From: Geosiphon pyriformis uo1
Taxonomy: Eukaryota; Fungi; Glomeromycota
Reading direction: 5' to 3'
DNA: 64,000 nucleotides
NCBI GenBank assembly: GCA_016748015.1
Contig: JAAOMT010000694.1
Coordinates: 186,001 to 250,000 of the forward strand
Below are positions 8,966-58,864 of the stretch, piece after piece (the first letter of the stretch is position 1; every line of letters starts with the position of its first letter). A model generated the notes under the pieces. The model did not search any database, was not told the DNA's origin, and worked only from the letters and a program-made list of their open reading frames with translations. Both the position numbers and the translations under genes were made by a program.

Positions 8966-9795
8966 TGTTACTCATAGAATATAGAAAATATATTAGCATA
9001 TAAATTAACCAATCAGAAGTAGTCATAGTAAATGTGGAATTCCAGAATTTCTTTTAAAGGAATTGCAGGATTCTAGGAATTTCAGAATTCTCATACAAAG
9101 AATTGCAAGATTCCAGAATTCTAGGATTCCTCTTAAAGGAATTGCAGGATTCCAAAAATTCCAGGATTCCTGGTATGAAGAATTGAGGAATCTTAATTAT
9201 GTATATATAATAGTAGCATTAGAAGTAAAAAGGACAGACCTCTTAGTTTAGATTTAATCTAAGTGACTTTCCAACTCACAAATATCAATAAATAATTATT
9301 TTCTATCTCAAATCTATTCTTTACTATCAACACTTTATGTTGATAATAATTAATACTTAACTACACTAGAACAATAGCTCTTAATCACAGCTATTGACGA
9401 GATACTAACCATTATTGTCTTGGTTTATTTTTTATTACTTTTATTTTTATTTTTTATTTTTTATTATTATTTACTAATTGATTAAAAGATTAAGCGCTGG
9501 AATACAGACGTCATAGGAACTGGTAAAAGACCCATGAAACAAGAATAGAACACTTATAGATTTGAGAATAGCTTACTAGGAAAACTACCAGCCACCATGC
9601 TGAGAAAAAAATTTGATGGAATTGTGATTCCAGGAGGCTACTGAAACAACAATTGAATCTCTATCTATTATACAAAGGACTCCACCAAAACCTTCAGATA
9701 ACAATATCTTCAGAAACCAATATCATTAAATCAATTTGAGCACCAAGTTATGGGTTTGTTATTTGCTTTGAGACCACAAATAATCATCTATAACA
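8966..9795 (+). repeat. B 5' LTR
   Basis: TGTTACTCATAG...TATAACA; matches 28950-29779. Confidence 0.92.
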
Positions 9796-11548: not shown

Positions 11549-12305
11549 TGTTACTTGAAGAAAAAAAGCCTATCAAAGAAAAAAGGAAAAACATGACCTG
11601 AAAAAAAACATGACAAAACATGAAAAGACACAAAATAGCATACAATAACATTGAATAATGTGTTATAACATAGAATAATGTATTATAATGTAGGATAATG
11701 TGTTATAATGTGGGATAACATAGAATAATGTGTAATAACATCAGATAATGTGTTATAATATAGAATAATTAGTTATAATGTAAGAAAAACAAATATACTT
11801 ATTCAGCATCTCAAATCCAGTTGTTCATTATTAATTCTAAATAGTGATAGTAATTAATACTTAAAACACACAGAAACAATAGCTCTTGATCACGGCTATT
11901 GATGGGATATTAACTTACATTGCCTTGGCTTATTGTCTTTATTTTTTTTTATTTCTTTTATTTTTGTCTTTATTTTGTTGTGTATACTAATTGATTGAGG
12001 ATTAAGTGCTAAGTATTGATGTCAAGAATTGTCTGGTAAAAGACTCCTATGAGTGAATAGAATGCGTAAGAATTATGGATTGCTTACCAGAGAATTGCTG
12101 GCCACCATGCTGAGAAAAAAATTGATGAAATTGCAATTCTGAGAAGCTATGGATAAAATAACATGGGAATCTCTATCCATTATACAAAAAATTCCAATCA
12201 AAATCTTCAAATCGAAACACTTGTAGACATTACTAATGTCATCCATTAAGTACCAAGTTACAGATTTATTATTTGCTTTGAGACCCCAAATAATTACCTG
12301 TAACA
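11549..12305 (+). repeat. A 5' LTR (internal ~160-bp deletion)
   Basis: TGTTACTTGAAG...TGTAACA; 10/20-bp ATAACATAGA-type tandem repeats at 11640-11780. Confidence 0.92.
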
Positions 12306-15300
12306 TTTGGTGCTCCTTGTGAGGTATAATCCTATAAAGAACCAGCACCAACAACAATCATCCAAAAGTAGTAGAATCAGAAATTATAAGAGCAAACTAT
12401 TTAGAATTTGCCAAATTCTTGTTTCAACAGTATAGCCAACAATTAAAATTAAACAACAACCATTTTCCAGTGGAATCAGTTTTCAACTTTTATGTCAATG
12501 ATAAAATTACAGACTGCTTAAGAGGAACAGTTAACATTGAATCCACAAGAGAAAATTTCTATACAGAATTATTTCAATATACCAGCTTACCAAAAAACCA
12601 CAGTTTTACACCAATCATCAGGAAAATTAATCAAACTATTAAAAGATACACTCAACAACAATTTTCCATCACCTATGCAAACAAAGGCAAAAGAAGATTG
12701 CAAACACCAGTGGTAACACCCAAAAAGATACAACCACCTACTTAGAAGAAAACCAGAGTTGAATTACCAACCAATTCATCATACTATTATACATCAGGAA
12801 GTGCCATCAACATCTCTTTAGCAGACATGTCCACATTAAATGTGACATCAACTTTTGGATGATTCCTATTTCAAAGTAAACAAAGAAGAACAGAGTTATT
12901 AGAACCATATGGTGAATATTTTGAAGGATTTAAATTGCGATCACCAATGCCATTAAGATTTTGATCACCACCACTCCCATCAAACTTTGGAATAACTGAT
13001 TCATGAGAAGTAACAAAATCAGAAAAAAAGGAAGAAGAAAATGAGGATCAGAAATTTACTTACCAAAACCCAATTTTAGAAAATCTGAAAGTCAAAACTC
13101 TAAACATTCAAACCCAGCAAACTCGAAACAATCCAAACTCTAAAACAATTAATCAACAAAACTTATCTCCAGTAATTGTCATCAATCAGCCACCAATTGA
13201 ACCAATTATCAAACTAATTCAATAGCAGCCACTTCAGCAACCTATTCAACAACCACCATCACTACAACAACCAATTGCACAAATGGCATATGCACCTATC
13301 GCAAAGCTAGAAAAATTTTCTGGTAAAGAGGATGATACCATTATTGCCAATAACTGGGATGATGTTAGAGCCCTTCAAGCAATCCTCTTTCTTTAGGATG
13401 CCACCAACTTATGGTATTATAACCTAGCTCAAAAACCCCAAACATTTGATGCATTTAAATTGGAATTTTTAAGATACTTTAGTAACAGTAACAGCATTAA
13501 CCACTTAGCCAATATTTTTATTACCATTAACCAAGAAAAAACTGAAGCAGTCACTACTTACTTAGGATGCTTCCACAAAAATCTGTGCCAAATTCAGGCA
13601 ATACAGATCAATTATTTTACAGCACCACAAATTCTAAACCAATTCATTAGAAACCTGTGCAGTAGTATCTTCCAACGCATATATTTTTTGCATCCAGCAG
13701 ACTTTCAAGCCATTGTTACAAATGCCAGAGATTTTGAAGCAGCTAAACTCGAAGCCAACCATGCCCAAGTTGTAAATTTAGTAATGAATGGATCATCTAA
13801 ATTGGATTCCAAATTGAAACAATTTAGTGATTCAATTAATTAGAAACTAAAAGAATACTTAGCTGACAATTGAGCAATTTATCAGTCTCCACAACAATAT
13901 AATAATTCAGGAAACATGAATCATTTCTGAAATCAGTCGTATCTCTCATCATCATCATCCAATTAGCCATGGCAGCAAGAAACATGTAGTTGCTACAATT
14001 GTGGTAAACAAGGTCACATTAGAGCTAGCTGCCAAGTTTATAGCGATAATCTATGATTAAAAAATTAAAATTGAAACTCCAATTGCAGATTTCAAACTCC
14101 AAACCACTACTCAAATCAAGATTACTATCAACCACACTATATTCAAATAGCACAACAACCAATCTACCAAACCTCAGCACCAGTTATCTACCAGCCACAG
14201 CCACAAATAATATATTAGTCACAACAAATTCAAACTCCACCACACAATCCAACCCAAACATCATTTGGAAACCAAAGACCAAGAATCATTCAGCAAAACT
14301 GAAGATCAGTAATAGTTGTATATCAACCAATCCCCAGAAGATGCCTTGACCAACAACAACAATCTGGAAACCTCCCCGAAGCAAATAATCAATATCAACA
14401 TATCTCCAGCCATTATTACAAATAATAAATCATTAGCAGTCATTTTTTCCTTCAAAATCAAGGGACCAACTGAAACTCCTTTCTTTAGTAAAGCTGCCCT
14501 TGATATGAAATCTATCACTGCTATGTACACTGACACCAAGGTCAATAGGCAGGCCATCAAGCTGATCCTAGACAGTGGTTCAGCAGACAGCCTTATCACA
14601 TGACAATTCATGAACCAATTAAGTTGTCGAGTTGATCACACTGCCAGTGCCAGAATTATCACTGCTGATGGAGCCATCAAAACTCCAATTGGTGAAATTG
14701 ACAATTTTCCCATCAAAATCAATGGTATCATTATACTAATCAAGATTTTAGTCATGGAAGCCACCTAGTATCAAGCTCTCATTGGTAATGACTGGTTGTC
14801 TAAAACCAATGCCATGCTCGACTGGAACACCCAAGAGCTACAGCTCAGCCAAAATAGGCAGTATACTAGAGTACCAGCCACCTGTAGACACTTCAAGACC
14901 ACTACAACCACACTACTAATTGAATTTAAGAAAGAAGAGAAGAAATTTACTTGAAAAGTCTACCAAGTTTTATGGACTAACACTAATCACAATGAATTAC
15001 CACCAATACTGTCTTGGGACAACAAAGGGAAAGAAAAAGAAAAAGACAAGCCACAAAAAGATACTACCAATGAAATTACCAGTGGCTGGGGAAGTTTCTA
15101 TTCAACTGACACCAGACCAGAACCATCCTATATTTTACTCCAGTGCAAAGACTGTAGGAAAAAATTGTCCTCCATAAAAGCTTGGGTTGCACCTGATGAA
15201 GACTACTGGACATGAACCCATTACTATTACAAACCATGCTACCATGAATGCTATGACTACCTAAAACACCAAGACAAGTGGAACAATAAACCATGTTTTG

Positions 15301-18300
15301 CTTGTGGCAAACAACTGCTCAACAAAGGGATGTGGAATGACATTCCTGGTTGAGAAAGAACCTGTGACGCTGTTACCAGACGAAATTAGAGATATTATTT
15401 AGCATGAAATTATTTTTATAATTCCTATTATTAATTAGCATATATTATTATTCAAATTATCACTTATTATATTAGCAAAATGTCCGAAATTATCATTTAA
15501 TTAATAACCTAATTTGCACATAACATAAATGTAACCTAATTGTGATGATCAATTATGTAATACCCCAAACTATATAACATTCAAAAAGTTCGCCAAAATT
15601 TGTAGAAATTTGCCGAAATAATTGATAGTTCACCGAAATATCTAATAGTTCGCAGAAATAACTTGTAGTTCGCCAAAATGTATCTTTTGTTCAGTGAAAT
15701 TGTAGAAAAGAGCAAAGTTCAAGTTCATAAAATAGTGTTATGACAAGTTGTATAAAAGAAGAGCTTCTCTCTTTGAGAAAATGTATCTTACTTTAGATTT
15801 ATCACTTAGAACCACTCCTACACACACAAAAAAAAAAATATAAAATAATTCGAAAAACCAAAAACTTTTTAATTATTGCACTTGAAAAATTCTCAAAACT
15901 CAACTAACGTTTTGAAATTGATTAGCTACCAATTTCAATAAACTGTTAATGACTTCAGGCCTGGATTGAAAATGTCTCCCTTGACAGAATTCTATTTCTT
16001 TTACATTTCTTTTATTTTCTTTCTTTTATTTTTTTATTATAATCATTAGAGTAGCCTACAGACGAGATTCCTGTAGAAGAGTTGACTTTCACAGCAAAGT
16101 AACTACATATTTTTAATGAGCTTCCAGACGAGCAATTTTTGGGAAAGAGTTGACGTTTACTACAACATAACTACATAAAGCAACTGGTATGGAATTGGTC
16201 ATTCCATTTATAAGCCCAGCAATTCAAATTATAAGAGATAATTTGAAGATAAATTCAGTTACTGGAGGTTCAACTACTTCCTGGAAATGTGAATTCACAG
16301 CAAATCAACATTAACAACATTCGAGAAAAGAGACCAAAAACCTCCAGTAACAACACATTGTGTCAATACACAATTCTCATTAATGACTGGGTAAGTTGAG
16401 AAACCTCAATAACTGCAGTCTGACATTAAGCAATTTCTTGCCTGGATGGTTACCCACATAACAAAGGTGAGATTTAGAGAATAGCCAATGCCAAGATAGA
16501 AAATGCTTCGCCCAGTGAGATCTTAAAAATAAAAAACAATTTCTCTGAATCAGTTGAAGTTGTTCTTATTCTCAATGCCTTTTTAGATATTGAGACAGAC
16601 CTAAAGGAATTCCATAAACACTACCAAAATTTAGCACACACTCAAAAGAAACAAGAACAGTGCTTGAAAAAAATAAACACCCAATTATGTAACCACTGTT
16701 TGATCCCATGTAACTTTTAGTATTGTAATGAGTGTGATCTCATCTACAATCCAACACCACACAGGATCTACATAATCTCAGAAGAAGAAGAACCAATCAG
16801 CAGCTGCACATCAAAATTGGATTCAACTTTTAATTCCAATTCAAACCCTGATGACAATAACAACAATGGTTCCAGCTCCATTCAAAATGGCAACAGCAAT
16901 AACAATGGTGATTTAAACTCAGATTCAGACTCCGAACAGTACATCTCACTTTTTGATCTTTCCAAGAAGCAAGAACTCAGATAGTTTAGTAACAACGATG
17001 AAGGTATTATGCCAGAATGTGCACATAATATTGATGCAGGGTTTGATCTGAGATATCTGGAAAAAGATATTATCAAATTGAAACCATATTTATGCATCTG
17101 CATTAATCTTAAAGTTGTATTGGAGCATCAGAGGAGGAATAATTGATGCTGGATATATGGGAAATATCATTGCTATGCTACAAAATGACTCAGAAAAGGC
17201 CTATATTATAGAACCAAACGAAAAAATAGCACAAGCAATATTCCTGCCTCTGGTTAAAATAGCTTAATTAGTATCAGTAGAAAACAGGGAAGAATTAAGA
17301 ATTACAGCTAGAGAGATACAAAAATTCGAATCAATGAGTAGAATAAATATACCAGTCAATATGGCAGAAGAAGAAGTTATTGACAAGGAAGAAATTATAT
17401 CCACCTGTCAATTAATTTCCATTCCACCATATGACCAGTACATGTTAACTATAAAAAAAAAAGTGAAAGATCAAGCACAAATTTTTGAAGTGAAACCAAC
17501 TATTTGCAAATCAAGAGAAATTGGACTTACCAATCTCTACATACTAGCCAAAAACAAGAACCATATCAAAATTTTTATCTACAACACAACAGGAAACATC
17601 ATAGAAATACCAAAAGAAACCACTATCAGGTATTTAAGCACTGAAGTTGAAGAACAGATACCAAACCCCATTCCAGATTTCCCACAGCTTTGTGGATATG
17701 TGGATATCACATCACAAACAATTTATGGATGGAATAAATATTATCTGCTCCAACCAAAACAATTGGAACAAATGAACATAAGAAACTTAGACCCACTTTA
17801 ACATATGCAGCTTAAGATATTACTCAACAACTTTAATGACATTTTTGCCAGCAAAAATGAATTTGGCTATACTGACATCATCCAGCATCAGATCAAGACT
17901 GGAGATGTGATGCCAATAAAACAACAAGCATACAGAATACCACCAGCCAGCCATGAAATTATTTGTTAAGAAATCAATTGGATGTTTGACAATGAGCTAA
18001 TTCAGCCATTAATAAGCCCATAATCATTACCAGTAGTACTAATCCATAAGAAAAATGGGAAAATCTGCTTTTGTGTAGATTACAGAAAACTGAATAGAGT
18101 AACAAAAGAAGATAACTACCCGACTCCAAAGATTCAAGAACTGTTTGATGCTTTTGGAGGAAAGCAATGGTTCTCAACTTTGAACTTAGACAGTGGTTAC
18201 TGGCAAGTAACCATGAAACTGGAAGATAAAGAGAAAATGGCTTTTACAATGCAAGAAGAGAATTTTGAATTTAAAGTAATGCTATTTGGTTTGATGAATG

Positions 18301-19172
18301 CACCAGCCACCTTCCAATAACTAATGGAAATTGTTTACACCAGACTACTATAGAAATCAGTAATTGTTTACTTAGATAACACAAATGTGTTCTCCAAGAC
18401 ATTCAACAATCATTTGCATTATCTCCAACAAATGTTTGAAAGACTAAGAAGAGCCAGATTAAAATTAAATGCAACCAAGTGTTTCTTTAAAAAAACTGAA
18501 TTCAAGTTTTTGGAACATGTTGTAAGCAAAGACAGTATCAAAACAGATTCAGACAATATTAAGGTAATCAAGAACTTTTTAATACCAACCAACTTGACAG
18601 AACTAAGAGCATTCTTGGGATTTGCTGGATACTATTGCTACTTTATCTAAGACTTTTTTAAACTGGTCCAGTTATTACATCAGCTCCAATCAAAAAACAT
18701 CAAGTATGAATAGACAGAAAACTAGCAAAAAGCTTTCGACATATTAAGAAGAAAGCTTATTTAAGCTCTAGTATTGATGTATCTAGATTACAGCAAACCA
18801 TTTATCATCATCACCAATGCATCAGGCCAAGCATTAGGAGCAGTACTATCACAGAAAAGACCAGATGGAAGAGAACATCCAGTAATATATGCTAGCCGAA
18901 GTTTGAGTCTAGCTAAAAAGAACTATGGAACACTAGCATTAGAACACTTAGCAATCTATTGAGCAGTCATGAAATGGAAAAAATACTTAAGTCAGAAGTT
19001 CAACATATACACTGATCATAAAGGATTGATTTCAATCTAAGAGCAAAAATTTGGAGATGATCATTATGCTCGATAGAAAATAGAACTTTCACTATTTAAA
19101 TATACTATACACTACAAAAAAGAAAAAAAAAAAGAAAATGCTAATGGTTTATCATGAATAAGACAAATCTAA
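12107..19172 (+). pseudogene. A gag-pol (gag with CCHC, protease, Cys-rich region, dUTPase, RT, RNase H), interrupted by solo LTR D
   Basis: CYNCGKQGHIRASC (~13990), LILDSGSADS (14565), DAGFDLRY (17033), GGIIDAGYMG (17133), RT/RH motifs 17850-19170; ends IRQI-TAA at 19170-19172. Confidence 0.88.
15371..16352 (+). mobile_element. Solo LTR, family D, inserted in A pol
   Basis: TGTTACCAG...CCAGTAACA, TSD ACGC/ACAC, TATAAAAG at 15751, ~20-bp GTTCGCCGAAAT tandem array; A pol resumes at 16357. Confidence 0.88.
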
Positions 19173-19202
19173 AGACACTTCAACCCAAAAATATAACAAA
19201 AG

Positions 19203-20567
19203 ATGAATAAACAAAAATATCAACAACTTCAACATTTTATAAATACCCAATGGTTCAAAGAGAAATTATCTCAAAAAGAACAAAACCATATCAAACAACA
19301 GTCCAAATATTTTATTACTCACCAAAATATACTTTATCAGAAAAACAGAAAGAATCCAGATCAACCAACCAGAGTAATCACAGAACCAGAAAAAGAAACA
19401 ATATTATTTAACATGCACTCCAATCCAACAGCAGGACATTTTTACAAAGAAGCAACCATAGAAAGAACCAAAAATAGATACTATTGGCCATCCATGTACT
19501 CAGACATTATCCAATACATACAAAATTGTGATGTTTGTCAGAGAAAAGGAGAAACAAAACCTAGTGAGCCATTAAAACCAATCAAAGTAAGACAACTATT
19601 CGAGCAGATTGGAATTGACTTAGTTGAATCATTAACAATAACTAACAGAGAGAACAGATACATTGCAGTAGTCATGAATTATCTCACTAAATGGCCAGAA
19701 GCAAAAGCAATTCAAAGAGCAGATGCAGAATCCATTGCCAAATTTGTCCATCAAGATCTGATTTGTCAACACAGATGTCCAAAAGAATTATTATCTGACC
19801 AAGGAACTTACTTTGTGAATAGAACATTAACAGAACTAAGTCAAAGATTCGAAATGAAGAGACTATTATTATTACCATATTATCCACAAACCAATGAATT
19901 AGTCAAAAGATTTAATAGAACATTGTGCAAAGCAATAGCCAAGATCAGCCAAGAAAACCAGAACAAATAAGATTTATTCATACCATCAGTATTATTTGTT
20001 TATTAGATGATAAAGCAAGATACTACACAAGCAACACCATTTGAATTAGTATATAGTAGAACAGCAATATTACCAGTTGAGATAGAAATCAATACATATC
20101 CGATAGAACCAATAACAGAAGACAATTTCCAAGAAACATTGCTGAGAAGAACATATAATGTAATGGAAATGCTAGAAAACAAATGGTAAAGAGCAGCTGA
20201 TAACATTCAAAAATCACAAAAAAAACAAAAAAAAAGGCATGATAACCAACTACCAAATAAACCAGTCAAATTTAGGATTGGAGACAAAGTACTGTTATAT
20301 CATACCAAAGCAGAAAAACAGTGGAATAGAAAGTTTGATCCAAAATGAGACAAACCATTTTATATACACAAAATTTTAGAAAATGGATCTTATAAGTTAT
20401 GATTAGAAAACAGAATTCTGAAAAGGACAGCACATGGAAATCATTTAAAAATTTATCAAACACAAGGATCAACATCAGTGGAACCACAACTAAGAACACA
20501 AATTCCATTAATCAGACTAGAAGATATACCATGAGATATAAAACCAATAATAATCATTAAGATATAG
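19203..20567 (+). pseudogene. A integrase (separate ORF with its own ATG)
   Basis: ORF 19203-19970 MNKQKY...MHSNPTAGHF..YYWPSMY..CDVCQR..IGIDLV..LSDQGT..PQTNELVKRFNRTL; continuation to ~20567. Confidence 0.88.
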
Positions 20568-20647
20568 CTACACATGTGCTGAAATCTAGATATTACATGC
20601 ATATAAGCCTTGAGACCGCAAAGAAGAGAACAATAAAAATTTCAAAC

Positions 20648-21418
20648 ATGGACTTTTTAGACAAAATTTTAAAATTATCTAAACAATTATTTAACAAAAT
20701 TCAAAAATCTACATCTCAAATAGAAATTATAATTGATAAAAAAGAGATAAGATATAGAAATAAGAGGAAGAGAGAGATGGATGAAAGTTCAACTAGAACT
20801 AACTATTCTTATCCCTACACTCTATCCAGGAAAAAAATTTTACAAAAAGGAATTAAATATACTTCTTGAGCAAGACATGGAGAAAAAGGAGGGGAGGAAA
20901 AAGAAAGAGTGAAAAAATTAAATAGAAAACAAAAATAATTATATACAACATACTTGGCTCTTAAGCTAGAAAAAATTAAAAAATTTTTAACTTGTGGGAC
21001 TAAACTCCCCAAAACAGGGGAGTGAACACCAGACAACACCCAAAAGTAGAAAGAAAGACTCCCACCAATATATTGGTTTTTCAAAATCAGAGAACAACTA
21101 GACTTAAAAAACTCATATGGAGATTACAACCAAAAAACTTTCAACAAAGAAGCAATATGACAAGTAGAAGAATTCGTAGGAAGGAACAACTTGACACTAC
21201 ACTACAAGACAGCATGTTGATTATATGTTGCTTTTTGACATTGTCCAAACATACTATTGGATAGATCTTTGAAAAAAATAACAATCAACAACATAGAATA
21301 AATGACCAATCAACAGTTCAAAAATCTACAAAAAGCCATAGTCAACATAATCATCGAACATTACATGAACAAAGTTCTATCAACAGACATAACTGACTTC
21401 ACAGAAGCTCACTATTAA
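20648..21418 (+). pseudogene. A ORF3 (~256 codons, unknown function)
   Basis: MDFLDKIL...; frame intact to the TAA just before the PPT, interrupted only by TGA/TAA codons explicable as C->T/G->A; homologous to B ORF3. Confidence 0.65.
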
Positions 21419-21434
21419 AAAAAGGAGGAGATAA

Positions 21435-22334
21435 TGTTACTTGAAGAAAAAAAGCCTATCAAAGAAAGAAAAAAAAATGTGATAAAACATAAAGAAACAC
21501 AGAATAGCATACAATAATATTAGATAATGCATTATAACATAGAATAACACATTATAACATAGGATAACATGTTATAATATGAGATAACATAGAATAATGT
21601 GTAATAATGTTAGATAATATGTTATAACATAGAATAATTAGTTATAACATAAAAAAAACAAAGTAATAGCTAGCAAAAACAGACAATCCAAAGCAATCCT
21701 GTAAAACCAGAAAATACACATATATAGCAGTAGCATTAAAAGCAGAAAAAAAAAAGAGAAACAAAAATTTCTTAATTATTATTTTCTAGTTAGAAACTAT
21801 AGCATTCCAAAATATCAATAAATATACTTATTCAGCATCTCAAATCCAGTTGTTTGCTATCAACTCTAAATAGTAATAGTAATTGATACTTAAAACATGC
21901 AGAAACAATAGCTCTTGATCATGGCTATTGATGGGATACTAACTTATATTGCTTTGGCTTATTGTCTTTATTTTTTTTTATCTCTTTTATTTTTGTCTTT
22001 ATTTTGTTGTATATACTAATTGATTGAGGATTAAGCACTAAGTATTAACATCAAGAATTGTCTGGTAAAAGACCCCTGCAAGTGGGTAGAATGTGTAAAA
22101 ATTACGAATTGCTTACTAGAGGATTGCTGGCCATTACACTGAGAAAAAAATTGATGGAATTGCAATTCCAGGAAGCTATGAATAAAATAATACAGGAATC
22201 TTTGTCTATTATACAAAAAACTCCAATCAAAATCTTCAGATCAAAACACCTACAGACATTACTAATGTCATCTATTAAGCACCAAATTATGAGTTTGTTA
22301 TTTGCTTTGAGACCCCAAATAATCACCTGTAACA
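21435..22334 (+). repeat. A 3' LTR
   Basis: TGTTACTTGAAG...TGTAACA. Confidence 0.92.
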
Positions 22335-22338
22335 GTGT

Positions 22339-25300
22339 GTTTGTTACTACTGTAGTAAACAAAGACATTTGAGAATTAACTATAGGTTAAAAATAAATAA
22401 CCAATGATTGGGAAATCAATATTAAAACTCTGATCACAGGTTTCAAACTCCAAATCAGAATACAAATTAAGATCAATACTTATCTTACTACACCCAAATA
22501 ACACAATAGCCAATTTATCAACCACCTGTATATTAAGCTCTAATTTATCAGCCAACAACACTCATTATTTATTAGCTGCAGCCACAACCTATCTATTAAC
22601 CACAGTTACAAGTAATATATCAGCCACAACCAATTCCAACACCACCACAAAACTTACCTTAAAACAGAATTCAAAGGCCAAGGATAACACAACAAAATTG
22701 GAGATCAGTGATAGTAGTCCATCAACTGATCTCCAGTTCTTTAACACAACCATCCAGATCTCAACAATAGAATTCAGGCACCAAGTATGCCCAAAACCTG
22801 AACTCCCAACACTATTTAAGTTTCCTAGTTGTTCCAAAAGACACTGCACCCAACAACCAAGAACCTAATCAAACCAAATCACTTACTAGCAACATACTTC
22901 CAGCCACTGTTACCAACAATAAATTACTAGTAGCAATATTCTCATTTGAACTTAAAGAACCATCATCCACATTCTTGTTCAGTGGAGCTGTGCTCAAAGA
23001 AAAACTGATTACTGCCATGTACACTAATGCTAAAGTTGATGGCCATTCTGTTAAGCTTATATTGGATAGTGGGTCAGCAGGCAGCATTATCACCTGACAA
23101 TTCATGAATCAATTAGGTCACCAAGTTGATCATGCTGCTAGTGCCAGGATCATAACAGCAGATGGAGCAACCAAAACTTTAATTGGAGAAATTAATGACT
23201 TTTTTATAGAAGTTAATAGTATCATCATACCAATTAAGGTATTGGTAATAGAAGCCACCTAGTACCAAGCACTTGTAAGTAATGACTGGTTGTTCAAGAC
23301 CAATGTGACACTTGATTAGAACATGCAGAAGCTTTAACTGAGCCAGAATGGTTAACACATATGTGTACCAGCCATGTGTGGTCACTTTAAAATGACTACC
23401 ACATCAACACCACTAATTGAGCTTAAAGAAGAAAAAGAAAAACCTACCTGGGAAGCATATCAGGTCTTATGGGCCAACAATGAGCACAACAAATTACTGC
23501 CAGTGTCTTCATGGGATGACCAAGAAAAAAGAAAACAAAGAGAGAAACCTACTTGGAATAATGATCAAATGTGGTGAACTGACAATAATCAAAACAAACT
23601 AACAACAACTTGAAAATGGAAAGAAGATAATAATAAAGGGAAAAAAAAAGAGAAAGAAGAAATTCCAATACCAATCAACACTTACTGCCTATATATGTAC
23701 CTACTACCACAGTCTTACTATTGTTAACCCAAGCTAATATGCGTCAATTGTGGTAAGAAATTGTCATCAATGGGTGCATATTGTGACAATAATAAAAAAT
23801 ACCTAATGGCCACTAAATTTTATTGTTACCCATGTGTTATAGAATGTTTTGGATGATCAAAATAACAAAAAAAATAGGACAATAAATTATGTTTTGCATG
23901 TGAAACTATTCTGCCTAACAAAAAAATGTGGAATAACATTCCTAGATATAGAAAAACATGCAATAAGATGTGTCAGTACATAATTCTAATCAATAACTGT
24001 GTATGCAAAGAAACACCAATTGAAGATGCCTAAAAACGAGCATTGTGATGATTGGAAGGATATCTACATGACAAACATGAAATATGGAGGATGGTGAGTG
24101 TGAAAGCAGAAGGCACAACAACCAATGAACTACTGAAAATCAAAAACAACCCTCTATCTCTTCCTAAACCCGAATACATACTAACTTTTGATGTCTTTGG
24201 CAACATTAAGGATGATCTGAAAAAATTCCATGAGCACTATCAATGACTGGCACCCACCAGAGAAAAACAGGAACAATGCTTAGAAGAAATAAACACCCAA
24301 TTATGTGATTACTGTTTGATCCCATGTGATTTCCAATATTGTAATGAGTATGACCTCATTTACAATCTATTACTGCACATAATCTACACAATCTCAGAAG
24401 AAAAAAAACTAATCAGCAGTTGTACAGTGGAATCAGAATCAATTTTCAATCCTGATTTAAACTTCGACAATGATAATGATAAAGATAATAGTTCCAGCTC
24501 TGTTCAAAATGACAATAAAAAGTATAATGATTTAAACCCCAAAACATATATTGTACTCTTTGATCTCACTAAGGAGCAGGAACTTAAATGGTTCAGCAAT
24601 AATAATAAAGGTATTATGTCAGAACATGTACATAATACTGATGCAGGGTTTGATCTAAGATATTCCAGAAAAGACACCATCAAATTGGAACCACATTTAT
24701 GCATCTGTATTAATCTCAAAATAGCACTAGAAATCTCAGCAACAACAATGGTTCAACTAGCATTTAGAAATAGTTTAGTGAAAAAGGGAATAAACATTAG
24801 AAGAGAAATAATTGATGCAGAATATATAAAAAACATTATTGCAATGCTACAGAATGACTCTGAAAAGACCTATATCATAGAGCCAAACAAAAAGATAACA
24901 CAGACAATATTCCTACCTCTGGTAAAAATAGTTTAGTTAATGTCAGTGGAAAACAGGGAAGAATTAAAGATTATAGCAAAAAGAATACAGGGATTTAGAT
25001 TAACAAATAGAATAAATGTACCAGTTAATATGGCAGAGAAAGAAATTATCAACAAAAAAGAAATTATCTTCACCCATCAACCAATTTCCATTCTACCATA
25101 TAACCAGTACATAGTAGTCATAGAAAGAAAAGTAAAGGATCAAGTTCAGATTTTTGAGGCAGAAGCAACACTTTGTAAATTAGAAAAGATTGGATTAGTC
25201 AATCTATACATACCAGTCAAAAACCACAGTCATATCAAAATTCTCATTTACAACAACACAGAAAATATTATCAAGATACCAGAGGAAACTATCATTAGAT

Positions 25301-28248: not shown

Positions 28249-28293
28249 AATTGAACAAACAAGGAGTATATAAAGACACAGTATATGCGACAA

Positions 28294-28936
28294 ATGACAG
28301 CAGAAAATGAAGATTACTGATAATATTTACTCACTAACACAACAACTTTTTTAACTAATCCAACAACAGGAAATGGAAATTACAATCAACCAATAAACTA
28401 TCAGATATACAAACATCAGAAAAAGACCATGAGATAAAATACAGAGAAAAACAAAAAACACTGTTGACAAAATAATCACAAAAGTGAAATTGGCAATAGA
28501 AACACAACCAAAAAATACCCAATATTAAGAATTGACTATAAAAACTTGGAATTGGTAGATACAACAATTTCCAAGAAACTTTTGTTACTTCTATTTGGGA
28601 CAACACTTGAACATTTAGGGCTTGTACACAGATAAAACAAAACAATTATTTGATACAACAATACTGCAACAACTGAAACAATTTGTAAGGAAGAACAATT
28701 TGATTATACAAGCAAGAGCCATTTATTGACTACATACTGGATTTCAAGATTGACCAGAAATTCTACTCAATTCAGAAATGAACTCCATTACCATTAATCA
28801 AATGGATAAAATAACCAATGCCCAATTTAAAGACTTACAGAACAAGATAGCACAAGTAATTCTTGAAAAAAAGATTCAAGAAATACTCAAAGATGGAGAA
28901 TTAGAATTAGAAGATCTCAATGGAGCTCAATATTAA
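28294..28936 (+). pseudogene. B ORF3 (unknown protein between IN and PPT), frameshifted
   Basis: C-terminal ~120 aa align without gaps to A ORF3; TATATAAA at 28267-28274. Confidence 0.6.
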
Positions 28937-28949
28937 AAGAAAGAAATAA

Positions 28950-29779
28950 TATTACTCATAGAATATAGGAAGTATATTAGCATATAAATTAACCAATCAG
29001 AAGTAGTTGTAATAAATATAGAATTCTAAGATTCCTCTTAGAGGAATTGCAGGATTTCAAGAATTTCAGGATTCTCATACAAAGAATCGCAAAATTCCAG
29101 AATTCCTCTCAAAGGAATTGCAAAATTCCAGGAATTCCAGGATTTCTGGTATGAAAAATTAAAAAATTGAGGAATCTCAATTATGTATATATAATGGTAG
29201 TATTAGAAATAGAAAAAACAGACCTCTAAGTTTAGATTTAATCTAAATGACCTTCTAACTCACAAATATCAATAAATAATTATTCTTTATCTCAAATTCA
29301 CTTTCTACTATCAACATGAAGTGTTGATAATAATTAATACTTAACTGTACTAGAATAATAGCTCTTGATCACAGCTATTGATAAGATACTAACTATTATT
29401 GTCTTGGCTTATTTTTTATTACTTTTATTTTTCTTTTTTTTTCTTTGTTGTTATTTACTAATTGATTAAAGGATTAAGTGCTGGAATACAAACATCATAG
29501 AAACTGGTAAAAGACCCATGAAACAAAAGTAAAACACTTATGGATTTGAGGATAGCTTACTAGGAAGACTACCAGCCACCATGCTAAGAAAAAAATTTGA
29601 CAGAATTGCGATTCCAGAAGGCTACTGAAACAACAATTGAATCTCTGTCTATTATACAAAGAACTCCACCAAAACCTTCAGATAACAATATCTTCAGAAA
29701 CCAACATTATTAAATTAATTTGAGCACCAAGTTATGGGTTTGTTATTTGCTTTGAGACCACAAATAATCATCTGTAACA
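28950..29779 (+). repeat. B 3' LTR
   Basis: T(A)TTACTCATAG...TGTAACA followed by TSD CCAG. Confidence 0.92.
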
Positions 29780-45445: not shown

Positions 45446-46882
45446 CTAGTAAATTCCTGGCAATTCCTCTTCCAATAGCATTCCTATGTCGTTATCTTCA
45501 TCCTCATCTTCATCGACAATTGAATCATTATCACTTTGTAAAAGGTCATCAAAAGCATTATCTGAAAGAATTACTCCTTCATGTAATGCGTCAACTTTAC
45601 GTCGCATGACCTTACGCATCTTTACAATTTGTGATTTCTTGAAAAATCCATATTGTCTTTGGCACTTGTCTGAAAGACCGTCTGTTGAATTTATAAGAGA
45701 TTTCAGTAGTTCATCTTCGATATCACACATTTGAAAAACAGCCACATCTCGGCATCTTGTTTTGCCGTCAAAAATGTGACCGATTTGTGGATCGCTAGTA
45801 ATTATATCAGCCATGTCATCTACAACATAGTCTGATTGTCGTCGTAAAACTCGCTTGGCCCGATCTGTCCTTACTGGACGCTTATTGTTACGAATATCAA
45901 GAAGCTGATAAAATCGTGCATCCCGATCTTTCCGCGGATCAAAACCGTAGCGGGTCCAACAATCCCGCCAAGGCCCATTTACCATCCAATAAGCGTATAA
46001 TGGGAGCAGCCTTTTGATTATCTTCTTATCCTCCAAGCCTAACGAACTCTCCAATGCAAGTCTAGTCCAGACGGGACGTTTTTTAAATAATTTTTGCATT
46101 TTATCACGACTCTCTAATGGGGTTTTATGAATATGTTTTTTGGCCTCTTGAGGAGGTCCATCTGGAACAATTCTTGTATCAAATGTAATTGACAAAGCTA
46201 CGAACTTTCTTCGGCGGCTACGATTGATTAACCTAATTGTGGGTATATGGGTCTCATCTTTTTGAATCAAGACCTTGATTACAGCAGCATTTTGGTCATA
46301 TCCATAATCCATTGGACATTCAGTTCTCGAAAATGAGGGTGGTGGAAGATTGGGTGGCGGATCTCCTTCTTCATTTTCAATTTTGTACTCTAAATTTCCC
46401 AATCCTTCCACATCAAATTTCTCTAATGATTGCCTGAAATTCCTAATGGGGCTGTTAGGATGTACAATATGCTGGAAGTCAGCCATCCCTCTAAACCGAC
46501 AGGTTCTACTTATGATCCCCAAGATTTTAAATTCAATATGACTATTGTTGTCGTCATTATTATCCTGATCTTTATCATCTATGTTGTTTTCGAAGTTATT
46601 ACCATTATATTTAGATTTCTTGCGCCAGCGTGTCACTTTAGTCAGTAAATTTGCAGTAGGAATAATATCCCCATTGATAGGATGGCAAAAAGGATCATCT
46701 GGACGAAATCGAAGTTCCACTAGATCTTGGTTGACTGCTTTATTTAATCCTCTCTGACCTCCGAGTGTTTTTAAAACATTTTCGAGGTTCTTTACATAGC
46801 CGGGATACTCGACCGCAAAAAAATGTTTCGCTGGAATCCCAAGACATGGTGCTTGTTCATAATCTGGTTGTTCAGAATCCAT
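45446..46882 (-). CDS. TFC1: RNA polymerase III transcription factor TFIIIC subunit tau95 (Tfc1/Sfc1/GTF3C5), 478 aa, intronless
   Basis: FFAVEYPGYVKN...TLGG...LRFRPDDPFCHPI...FRGMADFQ; LFKKRPVWTRLAL; AYWMVNGPWRDCWTRYGFDPRKD; acidic tail. First ATG (MDSEQP) at 46882. Confidence 0.93.
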   Translation of the reverse strand: MDSEQPDYEQAPCLGIPAKHFFAVEYPGYVKNLENVLKTLGGQRGLNKAVNQDLVELRFRPDDPFCHPINGDIIPTANLLTKVTRWRKKSKYNGNNFENNIDDKDQDNNDDNNSHIEFKILGIISRTCRFRGMADFQHIVHPNSPIRNFRQSLEKFDVEGLGNLEYKIENEEGDPPPNLPPPSFSRTECPMDYGYDQNAAVIKVLIQKDETHIPTIRLINRSRRRKFVALSITFDTRIVPDGPPQEAKKHIHKTPLESRDKMQKLFKKRPVWTRLALESSLGLEDKKIIKRLLPLYAYWMVNGPWRDCWTRYGFDPRKDRDARFYQLLDIRNNKRPVRTDRAKRVLRRQSDYVVDDMADIITSDPQIGHIFDGKTRCRDVAVFQMCDIEDELLKSLINSTDGLSDKCQRQYGFFKKSQIVKMRKVMRRKVDALHEGVILSDNAFDDLLQSDNDSIVDEDEDEDNDIGMLLEEELPGIY

Positions 46883-47087
46883 TATGCCTTTGTTTTGGTA
46901 AAGAAACTTGGGGACAAAATTCAAATGTAAATAATCAATGATGCACCTTTTAATTAGTGGCACTGTGCACACTGTATAATGTGGATAGTAGGTGTCGTCA
47001 TAGAAAAAACGCGTCCTATTTGGGAAAAGCAAATAAATCTAATACGTGTCGAGAAATTTTGGCTCGCTACCAAATGACGGAGAAAAT
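46883..47087. promoter_or_regulatory. Putative bidirectional promoter, TFC1/WDR8
   Basis: 205 bp between divergent start codons; ACGCGT at 47009-47014. Confidence 0.55.
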
Positions 47088-49200
47088 ATGGATTTCACAG
47101 AACTCTACAAACAATCTTTATATCTTAGTCAATTTTCCCCGAATGGGCAATTCTTGGCTACTGCTTACAGAAACAAACTCGTTATTCGTGATTCTAACAC
47201 TTTAGAAGTAATTGTCATTCATACCAGTGCAGAAATCATTCAAAGCATAGCTTGGTCCCCTGACTCAGAACTTTTGCTCGCCGGTTGTTTTAAATCCGGA
47301 GCTGTGTACATTTGGGGGGTATATGACGAGGAATGGAACGCTAAAATTGAAGAGGGAACTGTGGGATTGACTAATGCTAAGTGGAGTCCTGATGGGAGAA
47401 GCGTATTGTGTTTCTCCGATTTTCAAGTATGATTCGTTCGAATTTTAAAACAGCTTCATTTAATCATTAAAAAACTTTGATTTCTGCCTAACTTGGAGGT
47501 ACGAATAACAATATGGTCATTAATTTCTCGAGAGGCATGTTACATTCAATTCCCGAAATATTCTGAAAAAGGTAAATAGAGAAACTTCGTTTCTCGGTAC
47601 AACTTGTATAGTTTTATTAAAGATTAATTCTATATTGTTTCTATACGTCCTGAAAAGGATTTGATTTTCGAAAAGATGGCAAATATTTTATTCTTGCCGA
47701 ACGTCGTGACGGTAAAGATTATATCGGGATTTACGATTGCAATAATGCATGGAGATTATTAAAGGTCATTTTTTTTCTGATTAATACTGTTTGATTTAAT
47801 TAAACCATAATTTTATCTTTTGTTTCTTTTAACGACATGGGTCTTTGTTCACAGCATTTCGTGGTGGACACCGTAGATTTGGAGAATCTAGCTTGGTCCC
47901 CCGATGGACGGTATATTGCAGTATGGGATAATCGCATTGATGTATGTAACTATTCTTTTAGTCGCAAAATTCCAAATGCTTAATATAAACTTTCTGGTTA
48001 ATTAAAAGTATAGAGTTCTCATATATACACCTGATGGCAGGTGCCAAAAATCATATTCTGCCTATGAGATGGAGTTAGGTGTCAAAACGGCAACATGGGC
48101 CCCTTCCAGTCAGTTCTTAGCTGTTAGCAGCTACGACCAAAAGGTAAACTCTTAATATCAACCACACATTACTTTATTTCCCAAAGAGCTACCATTATTT
48201 AGAAGCTTTCTGCAAAAAAAAACCAAAAAACGACGGATGACGGGTAGCCTTTTTCTTCCTATAGATTCGTTTCCTTAATCATTACAACTGGTCACCAACA
48301 ATTGAATTTCTCCATACCAGTCCGGTCAATGATATACCAGATTTGGTAATCTCTCAAAATTTTCATTTGTTAACGATTTTTGCAACGTTCTAAATTTTCT
48401 TAATGTCACAAATAGACCATTCTGAGAGAAGTAAGCGAGGGAGAATCCAAAGACTATGGCCGCTCTATAATAAAGTGTAAGATGAATTTACAATAAAAAT
48501 ATTATTGCATTTCCAATTCACTAATACATTTCTTTATTGGGGATATTTTCACTAAGATGTGATTCAGGATCAGCCAATAGAGCTCCTTTCAATTCGCCCA
48601 GACCCTGAAAAGCCAAATCCCCGACTGGGAGTGGGGCTCTGTAAATTCAATGCGAATGGGACATTAGTTGCTTCCCGCAATGGTGCAGTATATTTTCCAA
48701 GCTAATTTAGTCTTTATAGATCCAACATCAAGGATTTTGTTATTCTGATTTACTTAACTCTCCTTCGCTTTTCCGCACATCTACAAGATAACATGCCAAA
48801 TTGTTTGTGGATATGGGATATATCTATGCTGAAACCCATTGTGTTATTTATCCAATTGATGCCAATAAAGAATTTCCATTGGAACCCGCAAGATCCCCAC
48901 CAGTTGGTACTGTTTTGTGGTTCAGAGTATCTTTATTTATGGTCTGGCGAGGAAATAGGCGCTGAAATTATTCAAGTTCCTCAAGGTAGGGGGATTCTTT
49001 TATCACTTATTTTATTTGGAATGTACTAAATAGGGGATTCATATATAGTCAACTTTCTCGTGAATAACCTTCGATGGAACCCTTCTGGTCAGTCATTATT
49101 ACTTATGGATAAAGAAGTATTTTGTGTTTCATTTTTTGTCAATGAGGATAACGAATCCTATGGGGAGGGAGATATCTCGAGTGTCTTGACTCATTATTAA
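47088..49200 (+). CDS. WRAP73: WD40 protein WDR8/WRAP73 (centrosome/SPB). 10 exons: 47088-47426, 47499-47571, 47658-47764, 47855-47941, 48009-48143, 48265-48345, 48416-48476, 48557-48682, 48788-48985, 49049-49200
   Basis: MDFTELYKQS..FSPNGQFLA..LVIRD..W.AKIEEG..GL...WSPDGR..RITIWS..IQFPK..RPDPEKPNPRLGV..RNDNMPNCLWIWD match the WDR8 family; GT-AG introns keep frame. Confidence 0.92.
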
Positions 49201-49337: not shown

Positions 49338-50637
49338 CTAATAATAGATAGTGGAAGCTGGTTTTTGTATTTTGAGCGAGTAATCGATATGGGGCACACC
49401 TTGAGATAAACTACCCATACTGATAATATCAATATCTTGAATAAAAGTAAATTAACGAATTAAACTCTAGCATGTTAAAAAGTACCTTTGTCGAATAAGA
49501 TAGAAATTAAATATACCTGGCGAAAAGAAATTAATAATGTTATCTTCAGTGACTCCGCCACTAGATTCGACCAAAAAGTGTTTATGAGTCCAACGAGATT
49601 TTAACGATTTCGCCACTTTTTTCAGCCCTTCACCAGACATATTATCAAGCATCACTATGTCAGCACCAGATTTGATTGCTTCATCTGCTTCTGCCTCAGT
49701 GCGGCACTCTACTTCGATTTTTAACGAGAAACTAGCGACTGAACGAGCGCGTTTCACAGCCTTTGTAATGGAACCTAGGTTTGAGGGAAAGTTAGCAAAT
49801 CATCAGAAACTTACAAAGCATAAGAGTTACCTTGACTCCAAATGTGATTATCCTTTAACATTATCATGGTGGATAAGTCAATACGATGAGTATCTGCTCC
49901 GCCAACAACCATTCCATATTTCTCCACCATTCGAAATCCTAATAAATGCTATTGTATTAATTTCTGGTGTATATTTTCAAAGATTCAGATGAATAAAAAG
50001 TTACCAGGAGTGGTTTTTCGCGTTCCTGCAATAATGCCTTTGAAGCTATGCTTCGCCTTTAAGTCAACGCAGCGTTTAGCTCTATTGAAAAACGAGCTCA
50101 GTAAAGATGGCTTTGTACAAATTTATTAATGAGGGAAGCACAGGCTCAAAAAAGGAAGTACCTCGTAGCAATGCCACTACAGCGGGCCAGTATATTCAGT
50201 GCTGTTCGTTCGCCCAAGAGTATCTTGCGCGCTGGGCCGTAAACTCGTGCTACTTCTTTGATTGGTTCAAAATGTTCTCCTTCCTCACAAACCCACTCAA
50301 CTCTAAAAATTATTTATAACATGAGTCGTAATTGGGAATTATAACGCTCTCACAGACTATCTAACCAGACCTGCAGTCCAACTGATTAAAAACTTCTTCA
50401 AAAAATGGGACACCGGCTAATATGCCCTGTTTAGAGAAGGAAGAATAGTTGAAGAGTAAAGAAATTTAAATGCGTATAGTGAAATAGACTAACAGGAGTT
50501 TTCGCCAATATTACGGCAACTTCTGGAGTTTCTCCAACGACATATCCCCCATAGTCAAATGAAGGAACATCTTCTTGTAACCAAACTTGAATGGCTTTCT
50601 TGTAATTTGGAGGAAGAAGATAACTATAAGATTCCAT
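49338..50637 (-). CDS. BNA6: Nicotinate-nucleotide pyrophosphorylase (quinolinate phosphoribosyltransferase), multi-exon
   Basis: [107 protein letters not shown]. Confidence 0.95.
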
Positions 50638-51180
50638 TAAAATTTTTTGTGAATGGAAATGATCACCAGAAGACAGTTTTGACAAATTTATTTAAAATAA
50701 AATATTTATTTATCTGTATAACTTTTTTATTAATTTAATTACATAATGTATATACATATTTGTATAAGTGTAAATTATGTATTTTTTTTACATTTTATGT
50801 TAATATTATTATGGTTAAAAATTATAGTTTTTATTAATTATTACATGTATTAGCCACTAATATTATATAATTAGCCACTTTATTTTTAGAAAATAATTAA
50901 TAATCTGATTATTGACCTAATTGTTAACTTAATTAATAACTTAATTATTAATCTAATTGTTAATTTGATTATTAATCATTTTAAACAGCTATATAAATAA
51001 TATATCTTTTAGCTTTAAAAAAACATATTCAAATATACAAAATATATACAAATCAAAATAATAAAAATCATTTTTAAAATATTTAATTCTTTCTAATTTA
51101 CTATCTTTTTATTTTTTTAAGTATCTAAATATTTTTGAATAAAAGATTATTTGTTAGTATTTACTTATAACTATTAGTAT

Positions 51181-51799
51181 TGTTACAGGTTGGAGTAACA
51201 AGCTAATGGATAGCAAGAGAGAACAGTATTGTATAGTGATGGAAATAAACAAAGAGGGAATTACAATAAGGGAGCGAATTAAATAAGTAGGAATTCAATG
51301 TGCGTAATCAGTCTCATAAAAATCACAGTCGCTAATCTTTTCTTAAATCTGAAGGTAGAGGAATAGTCTGTGATTGTCAACAAAATAACACTGCTGCTAT
51401 TATTCTATGCCTCAACTTGGCGATTCTTAGAATCAATAATAGGTATCATTGTGTTTTTTAATCATTTCTTTATTCAATAAATTACAAGAGCAAGCCAATT
51501 GCTTCTCAGGCTAATTCTAACAAATACAAATCAAGAAGGGGAAAAGATAAGATATGTGAATACCAACAAGTAGATACTTGAAGGTAAGGAAAGAGGAATA
51601 AGCGATTATAAGAGGAAGTAATTGATATTGTTTTATTTCGTTACTTTTATCATGTCTTTCTACAGCTAAGGGAATCATCACTTATATAGCTATCTAAAGT
51701 GGTCAACGATCACTATCTAAAAATAGGGTGGCTAATTATATGACATCAGTGGCTAATACATGTAATAACTAATAAAAACTATGGATTTCAACCATAACA
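51181..51799 (-). repeat. C3 3' LTR (619 bp)
   Basis: TGTTAC...ATAACA; 60 bp shorter than its partner, in the minisatellite. Confidence 0.93.
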
Positions 51800-52425
51800 T
51801 TATCCTCTTCAAAGAGATTGAGCTCTGGTGAAATCAAGCTATTTATGGGATAGTCTATGTGAAGGATTTTGTCTAACTCAAAACTAACTAGTTTGTTGAA
51901 GTCTTTTGTGGATAGGGTATATAATACTTGAGATGAAATAAGTTTTGTATCCAAGAGACCAAATCTTTGTGTAAGAGTTCTGGCTCTTTTAGCAATGGTC
52001 AAAACTCTTAGAATATCCAATCGTATAATGCCCAAAATTTTCCCTTGTATCTCTGAAGTTGTTTTCTTCATGAGCTTCATGTCTTCTATGATTTCACCAA
52101 GATGACCATAGAGTTCTAGTTGTCTTTCATATGACAAGTTTTTGTCTATGGGCAAGATTTCTTGTATTATTTTTCCAATTGTGCTGGAAGGTGAAAGTAT
52201 CACTGCTGTTATGCTTTCCAGCAGGTATTTATCCATTTTGCCACCAATTTTTTCTCTTCTGGTAGTTGTTTTCTTTGGTCTGATAACAGTGTAAGTTCCA
52301 TTGTTGTCTGTTATGGTGGTTTGTTTTCCGATAGTCAAAGTAGCATTTGGATAGTTCTTGATCCAGTACTCATGGAGAGTATAAAAAGCGTTTTGAATGT
52401 TTTAATCCAGGAAATAATTGTTCAT
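51769..52425 (-). pseudogene. C3 ORF3 (~218 aa, unknown), single premature TAA at codon 8; stop lies inside the 3' LTR
   Basis: ATG at 52425 (MNNYFLD*NIQ); the stop is CAA in copy C2; 189-aa ORF 51769-52338; homologues at 31415-32070 and ~7580-8230. Confidence 0.7.
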
Positions 52426-52466
52426 ATTGATTGAAGATACCTCTATTTTGGGAATGGTGCATTTAT

Positions 52467-53833
52467 TTATCTTTGATTTTTGCTGATCATTTGGGTTGGT
52501 ATTACCACAACAGGTAACCAATCAGATCATTTGTAATATTTCTTGAGTTGTGTGCTATAAACAGGGCAATTACTGAATATTGTTCCATATTGATTTTGTA
52601 GGATATATGAACCATTGTTCAAAACTTTGTTGACTATAAAAGGTCTTTTCCAGCGGCTAGAAAATTTATCACCATAGACATTGTCTCTGTCTGAACAGTA
52701 TTCTAAAACTAAGTCATCAATACTTAAGGAAAGTGTTTTATAGGTCTTTTTTTTTTGAGCTTCTCTTGAAACTATTCTATCTTTTCAAAGGCAATTATCC
52801 GTGCTTCTACCAATAAGTCAAGAATGGTACCAAGTCTTCTTTGCAAAATGTTCTTGTAATCTCCTATTGTTATTTCTTCAAAAGGTATTGTTTCTATATC
52901 TGTTTCTATTGGTAGAATTGCCATTCATCCATAGAGCAGATAAAAGGATTCATAACTTGTTATGTCATGATTCATGGTTCTGTAGGCGAACAAAGCTGAA
53001 GGCAATACTTTGTCCCATAGGTTGGTTTTTTCACTGGTTTTGGCTAGGGTTTCACATAGTGTTCTATTGAAACATTCCACTAGACTATTTGTTTGGGGGT
53101 GATAAGGGGAAGAAAGTTTATGACATATTCCCATTTTTCTGCAAAGTTCTTCAACCAGTGTACTGAGAAAAGCTCTTCCTCTGTCAGATAAAAGTTCTTT
53201 GGGACAGCCATGGTGACAAATAATATCTTCATAAATGAAATTGGCAATTGAGACTGCTGTTTGATCTGGGGTGGCTCTTGTTTCTACTCACTTTGTAAGA
53301 TAGTCAGTAGCTGTGATAATGTATTTGTTGCCATCAGGAGTTACTGTTAAAGGTCCAACAACATCTATACCAATTCTGTCAAATGGTTGACCAACAGAGA
53401 TTGGATGAATATCTTCCTTGTGATTGGGTTTTCCTTTTCTTTGGCAGGTATCACAGGTTTTGATGTATTCAGCAATGTCTTTTTCCAAGGTAGGCCAATA
53501 ATAGCAAGCTAAAGTTTTCTGAATTGTTTTTGTTTTTCCAAAGTGTCCAGCTAATGGATTAGTGTGCATATTGTAGATCACAATTTCTCTTTCTTCAAAT
53601 CTAATGACTCTCTGGGGGCAGTCAGAATCTTTTTTATTTCTTTTATATAACTTAATTCCGTAAATATTATTTGGATTTGCACGTCGAGAAATAGTTTAAA
53701 AAAAATGGTTCTGGTGAATCAAATAGAAATTTGATTGTTTGTGCAAATGTTCTCTTTGCTGTTGAGTATAGTCCAGCAGGTATTGTTCTTTACCCAAAAA
53801 TTCCATTAAGGCAGAGTAGTTGTCCAAGTCCAT
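52467..53833 (-). pseudogene. C3 integrase (separate ORF, ATG at 53833)
   Basis: MDLDNYSALMEFL...MHTNPLAGHFG..YYWP..CDTCQR..IGIDVVGPL..DYLTK..SSPYHPQTN..FNRTL; 54-bp foreign insert at 53652-53705. Confidence 0.88.
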
Positions 53834-58162: not shown

Positions 58163-58179
58163 CCTCACAGGAAGCACCA
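58163..58179 (-). promoter_or_regulatory. Primer-binding site of C3
   Basis: TGGTGCTTCCTGTGAGG on the minus strand, 6 nt after the LTR. Confidence 0.8.
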
Positions 58180-58185
58180 CTTTTA

Positions 58186-58864
58186 TGTTATGGGTTGGAG
58201 TAACAAGCTAATGGATAGCAAGGGAGAACAGTATTGTATAGTAATGAAAATAAACAAAGAAGGAATTACAATAAGGGAGTGAATTAAATAAGTAGGAATT
58301 CAATGTGCATGATCAGTTTCATAAAAATCACAGTCGCTAATCTTTTCTTAAATCTGAAGGTAGAAGAATAGTCTGTGATTGTCAACAAAATAACACTGCT
58401 GCTATTATTCTATGCCTTAACTCGGCAATTCTTAGAATCAATAACAGATATTATTGTGCTTTTCAATCATTTCTTTATTCAATGAATTACAAGAGCAAGC
58501 CAATTGCTTCTCAGGCTAATTCTAACAAATACAAATCAAGAAAGAGAAAAGATAAGGTATGTCAATACCAACAAGTAGATACTTGAAGGTAAGGAAAGGG
58601 GAATAAGTGATTATGAAAAGAAGTAATTGATATTGTTTTATTTCGTTACTTTTATCATGTCTTTCTACAGCTAAAAAAATCATCACTTATATAGCTATCT
58701 AAAATGGTCAATGACCAGATCAATGATCAGATTAATAATCAGGTCAATAGTCAAGTCATTGATCAGGTCAACGATCACTATCTAAAAATAGAGTGGCTAA
58801 TTATATGACATCAGTGGCTAATACATGTAATAATTAATAAAAACTATGGGTTTCAACCATAACA
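58186..58864 (-). repeat. C3 5' LTR (679 bp)
   Basis: TGTTAT...ATAACA followed by TSD GTAT. Confidence 0.93.

Follow-up and report, generated by a model that had tools for sequence, protein, structure and literature searches.

A third open reading frame downstream of a separately encoded integrase in decayed Ty3/gypsy elements of Geosiphon pyriformis

Sense open reading frames (ORFs) between pol and the 3′ long terminal repeat (LTR) have already been described; their function is mostly unknown, and what extra ORFs do in LTR retrotransposons is posed as an open question in the accessible part of PMC7264820. The family of third ORFs (ORF3) reported here bears on that question. It was studied in a window of 64,000 nucleotides (contig JAAOMT010000694.1, positions 186,001 to 250,000) from the fungus Geosiphon pyriformis uo1, whose genome consists of LTR elements to 41.2% (accessible part of PMC11952901). 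Nested, decayed LTR elements are stacked in this window around a small number of host genes. C1 contains C2 and, within its integrase, B, which in turn contains A; a further family-C copy is termed C3.

All five elements were assigned to Ty3/gypsy by the type of reverse transcriptase (RT) and by domain order between the LTRs (gag, protease, RT, RNase H, integrase). The best match of the RT among solved structures was the Ty3 RT (E 3e-35). With described Ty3/gypsy elements (Metaviridae; YPYY-type integrases near Athila/Tat and Ginger1, accessible part of PMC2836005) they have in common the domain order, the Ty3-type RT, LTR ends TG..CA, target duplications of 4 bp and, ahead of the integrase zinc finger, an N-terminal extension that by eye looks like the YPYY motif. 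They differ in that the integrase has its own ATG after the RNase H stop and is followed by the third ORF.

The separate integrase and the third gene

ORF3 is a genuine and conserved gene, the third in a fungal Ty3/gypsy lineage whose integrase is encoded separately. The integrase is not part of the Pol polyprotein in A, in C3 and in L001 (the contig encoding P0201, a relative described below); RNase H ends in a stop codon and a separate ATG follows. The stand-alone integrase ORF of C3 (52467..53833, minus strand) carries H2C2 and rve domains and is decayed; 44 nt separate its stop from the ORF3 ATG downstream. The spacer from the RNase H stop to the integrase ATG is 65 nt long and out of frame in C3 (53834..53898, minus strand), so that stop read-through is not a general route to integrase; the spacers of A (30 nt, ~19172-19203) and L001 (24 nt, 772-801 region) are both in frame. 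These spacers are rich in C/A, with a good start context at their end. In L001 the order is RNase H stop, 24-nt spacer, own-ATG integrase (one internal stop), 316-nt spacer, ORF3 and LTR. Its integrase shares 50-54% identity with the integrases of A, B and C3, so the layout in three parts characterises a lineage, not a single family. The proposed pairing of ORF3 with a split integrase is thus seen in A, B and C and, outside the window, in L001.

A sense ORF follows pol in all five window copies that have a 3′ internal region, and in L001. The original prediction of such an ORF in every copy stood (209-256 codons, all decayed) except for its start in B, which is at 28307 and not 28294; the latter was ruled out, being in another frame that gives a different, stop-ridden peptide. 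ORF3 was located on the plus strand in A (20648..21418, 256 codons, 8 stops) and B (28307..28936, 209 codons, 8 stops), and on the minus strand in C3 (51769..52425, 218 codons, one internal stop at codon 8), C2 (31415..32070, one frameshift from a 1-nt deletion near codon 23, 2 stops) and C1 (7579..8233, 3′ end ~7579, start lost, 2 frameshifts). The elements C1 and B are broken up by nested insertions. At 7579-7581, C1 has TGG in place of the ORF3 stop TAG of C2 and C3, and its frame runs further into the U3 part of the LTR.

The C3 interval holds 2 stops in its own frame, the terminal one included, against 11-18 in the five others; in A and B the ORF3 frame is the cleanest by a small margin only (9 stops against 10-22). 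Of the 17 stops of A, B and C3, 16 stand opposite Q, W or R in one or more relatives and so reflect C>T/G>A decay. Since, in addition, 20 of 120 listed relatives of C are exactly 218 residues long from start to stop, the ancestral frames were open. Intact natural copies are present elsewhere in the Geosiphon pyriformis genome.

ORF3 had been placed between the integrase and the polypurine tract (PPT). This applies to A and B, where it ends just before the PPT, but not to C, where it reads through: the PPT of C3 (51800..51810, minus strand) is translated as ORF3 codons, and the last 8 codons lie inside the 3′ LTR (51181..51799, minus strand; LTR start 51799). The intact ORF3 of L001 (230 codons) likewise runs through the PPT into the LTR. 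A DNA motif, GAGCTCAAT, was seen directly upstream of the PPT in C3 (51820-51830), B (28920-28930) and L001 (3092-3100), with a variant in A (21405-21415). Its position is the same whether ORF3 stops there or continues, and it probably acts in cis in plus-strand priming.

The ORF3 protein family and its predicted fold

The ORF3 proteins of A and B are homologous (tblastn, 29% identity, E 3e-15). Their alignment, described earlier as gapless, is nearly so in a core of 116 codons, but A has ~50 extra codons in the N-terminal half. A profile built from A and B was run against 1.84 billion representatives and gave 96 matches; 17 of the 19 looked up were from Geosiphon, spanning three further subfamilies, and two were metagenomic (P0200 and P0201). 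In a second search, 118 of the best 120 of 176 matches were from Geosiphon and two metagenomic. All 120 listed relatives of the C3 protein (identity up to 89%) and all 14 of the A protein (up to 69%) are labelled Geosiphon pyriformis. Pieces of ORF3 account for more than 300 "hypothetical proteins", almost all of them with a Geosiphon label (193 A/B-type and 121 C-type among those collected), and at least six Geosiphon subfamilies retain the gene. Where ORF3 and an integrase C-terminal piece share a gene model, the integrase piece is upstream (24/24 A/B-type, 30/30 C-type).

The looser resemblance of C to A and B that had been noticed is borne out by whole-length comparison but not by local profile methods. 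The hidden Markov model (HMM) of the A/B family scored C at no more than 1.5 bits, under shuffled sequences (up to 9 bits), hhalign of C against the family gave a probability below 1%, and global alignment of C with A gave z ~0, as expected if C carried an unrelated gene in the same slot and the family comprised A, B and their relatives alone. Against this, C is colinear with P0201 from end to end, with a mean global z of 4.7 (2.5-7.0; 20 copies, PPT tail removed) compared with 2.2 (maximum 3.7) for the reversed control. Profile-profile comparison of C with the family gave z 4.4, with 0/40 shuffles as good, unrelated controls at -0.6 and 0.3, and the reversed profile at 2.3. C also matches in position, length and PPT overlap. 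By sequence comparison, ORF3 of C is thus quite probably a remote member of the A/B family, and a separate origin seems unlikely.

No membrane segment was found, the maximum 19-residue hydropathy being 0.27-1.29 in 8/8 proteins, in agreement with the view that ORF3 is not Env; the test was one of hydropathy, with no dedicated signal-peptide predictor used. Searches of Pfam and PDB gave no ORF3 match, and no viral or solved RNA-binding fold was matched. The structural model (predicted local distance difference test score 79) contains a small alpha/beta head and a helical core, consistent with the uncharacterised, mostly helical accessory protein first proposed. The prediction also includes a basic linker, and in the helical core it casts the conserved GKTN-x6-A-x2-RLY as the turn and the recognition helix of a putative helix-turn-helix. 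Likeness to the ParB/KorB helix-turn-helix is weak and below significance, the structural and best local profile matches being in consistent register. For DUF1016_N (PF17761), hhalign against 79 members gave E 0.16-0.23 with 0/25 shuffles as good, but z was 1.2 and the HMM score at most 2.3 bits.

Divergence, promoters and proposed function

Transversions were counted for selection because decay here proceeds by transitions. Between A and B, pol showed 5 second-position and 50 third-position transversions in 704 codons, and ORF3 showed 42 and 71 in 206 codons; the excess at third positions (p 0.008) indicates that ORF3 is under purifying constraint, as expected of the conserved gene first described. 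Among the three C copies there were too few transversions to show selection (p 0.17). The accompanying claim of fast evolution holds in part. On tree distances to L001, ORF3 is ~2-3 times as fast as integrase, but the contrast between A and B (~5 times by branch lengths) is inflated, silent sites being diverged as well; these rates were read from tree branch lengths, with C forced into that alignment. Fourfold-site divergence between A and B was 5/11 in ORF3 against 21/147 in pol (p 0.019, small numbers), so that the two ORF3 genes split earlier than their pol genes. Sliding comparison of A with B delimited a divergent block (20400..21880, plus strand; integrase tail, ORF3, PPT and U3), flanked by near-identical pol and R/U5, with edges at ~20400 in the integrase tail and ~21880 at the U3 end. 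This points to an older, exchanged 3′ block that comprises U3, ORF3 and the tail of the integrase; a fast-evolving gene plus exchange of its 3′ cassette would be the simplest reading of the ORF3 divergence.

TATA-like boxes had been reported upstream of ORF3. They are present in B (28267..28274, plus strand, 40 nt upstream of the ATG) and C2 (32109..32116, minus strand), but the C2 box and the integrase stop codon overlap, C3 reads GATAAATA at this site and lacks the strict form, and the match in A is weak; strict TATAWAWR occurs in these elements at 0.08 per 100 nt. A promoter of its own for ORF3 finds support in the sequence of L001, the least decayed element, but none in A, B or C. In L001 one heptamer is confined to U3 and to the region upstream of the TATA box before ORF3; a motif of this type common to both regions was not found in A, B or C (1/4 elements overall), where motifs containing C and G have undergone heavy decay and the pre-ORF3 spacers are short. 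The U3 regions carry tandem arrays that differ among the families, each upstream of the LTR TATA box: 10/20-bp units in A (11645..11781, plus strand; second copy 21521-21651), a 40-bp unit in B (9036..9169, plus strand; second copy 29080-29146) and a 12-bp unit in C (58708-58777, minus strand, in the 5′ LTR of C3, 58186..58864).

We tentatively favour ORF3 as a nuclear, family-specific DNA-binding regulator of its own element's promoters, a reading we place just short of an even chance. Of the functions first offered, a transactivator (or anti-silencer) would fit best. An internal promoter where the integrase gene ends would drive ORF3, and the protein would enter the nucleus and bind the U3 repeats of its own family, raising transcription or countering methylation silencing. 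The ORF3 and U3 cassette could be exchanged by template switching; with the 3′ end of the RNA as template for both, protein and target would be inherited together. The fuller scheme is possible but doubtful: three separately translated units (gag-pol, integrase and ORF3), an ORF3 protein with a helix-turn-helix, belonging to a new family and binding the U3 repeats and internal promoter of its own element, and ORF3 with U3 as a swappable lock-and-key cassette. For this family there are natural genes that are intact, a structural model of good confidence, repeats that are candidate targets, and several pairs of protein and repeat that have diverged.

ORF3 might instead be a partner of the integrase, bringing it into the particle or nucleus or steering integration to chromatin like a chromodomain in trans. 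Split integrase and ORF3 co-occur in A, B, C and L001, the A-B divergent block takes in the integrase C-terminal tail, the ORF3 and integrase trees both place A with B against L001 and C, and no chromodomain family was among the matches of the integrase pieces scanned. We consider such a role improbable, though not strikingly so: A and B have almost the same integrase core (1 second-position transversion in 275 codons) whereas their ORF3 is 32% identical, and the coupling reaches the non-coding U3, which an adaptor would leave unexplained.

Binding of RNA, with suppression of small-RNA silencing or control over how the integrase message is exported, spliced or translated, would suit the basic proteins of families A-D (isoelectric point 8.7-9.7), their fast divergence despite constraint, and the special expression route that a separate integrase ORF requires. 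Transposable elements are sites of DNA methylation and small RNAs in Rhizophagus irregularis, a related fungus in which young elements give rise to small RNAs (accessible part of bioRxiv 10.1101/2021.03.30.436303). The coupling of ORF3 with U3 is not predicted by such a role, however, and with no RNA-binding fold matched it seems decidedly unlikely. A last reading, with ORF3 as a by-product or a piece of captured host sequence that hitchhikes without use to the element, would suit the broken state of every window copy but is very improbable and already largely refuted by the purifying signal between A and B, the intact gene in L001, its retention in the Geosiphon subfamilies and the constant upstream integrase piece.

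Surroundings of the elements and known systems

The primer-binding site is nearly identical across families A, B and C (12306-12325, 58170-58185) and may resemble an isoleucine tRNA end. In A and B a dUTPase domain and a long cysteine-rich insert lie between protease and RT (24247-24933, ~16600-17100); the domain gave a Pfam E of 2e-10 in B, and none was seen in C3. The C3 LTRs are unequal in the U3 array (~six units at 58708-58777, one at 51700-51720), and the 5′ LTR of A lacks ~150 nt that its 3′ LTR has. CpG observed/expected was 0.07-0.16 in the elements, a depletion, compared with 0.88 in one host gene. Over 51769-53833, C>T/G>A differences between C2 and C3 were seen in every dinucleotide context and not at CpG alone (27-40% outside CpG, 7/12 at CpG). 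Host genes between the element stacks (45446-47038, 47043-47432) encode a TFIIIC Tau95 subunit and a WD40 protein, and a gene start at ~50500-50640 presumably belongs to a quinolinate phosphoribosyltransferase.

Of the candidate undescribed system first proposed, the new protein family and the unusual three-unit element hold up, but the kind of system is not new: the slot is known and extra sense ORFs have been described (accessible part of PMC7264820). The accessible parts of a survey of fungal LTR elements (PMC3248453) and of a transposable-element survey that includes Geosiphon (PMC11952901) contain no mention of such an ORF that we could find, and a literature search, with Repbase and subscription papers outside its reach, returned no description of the family. 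The sense aORF-3S and env-like ORFs of plant and insect elements (PMC7264820, same part) resemble ORF3 in position, orientation and retention in most copies; ORF3 differs in being fungal, in having no transmembrane segment and no family match, and in overlapping the PPT and LTR in C and L001. Compared with ParB/Spo0J/KorB helix-turn-helix proteins and the DUF1016 N-terminal domain, ORF3 has neither the ParB CTPase nor the DUF1016 nuclease domain.

Foamy-virus Tas/BTas is encoded by an accessory gene near the 3′ LTR, and its product binds the LTR and an internal promoter (accessible part of PMC4929722). The motif that L001 has in both U3 and the pre-ORF3 region is a parallel by analogy, no relation in sequence or fold having been seen; the elements described here differ in having no env. 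If ORF3 were a sequence-specific activator or anti-silencer, it would represent self-encoded counter-defence in a fungal retrotransposon. VANC of the Arabidopsis VANDAL transposons is likewise a transposon-encoded accessory protein, which, in a host that methylates DNA, diverges along with tandem repeats particular to each family (accessible part of PMC5735166), and the distinct non-coding U3 arrays of A, B and C are a feature of this type. VANDALs, however, are DNA transposons, and ORF3 has no Pfam match to any such family. Should ORF3 and U3 prove to form a lock-and-key cassette, it would be a retroelement counterpart of VANC and could explain the ~41% LTR cover of the Geosiphon genome in the face of heavy methylation.
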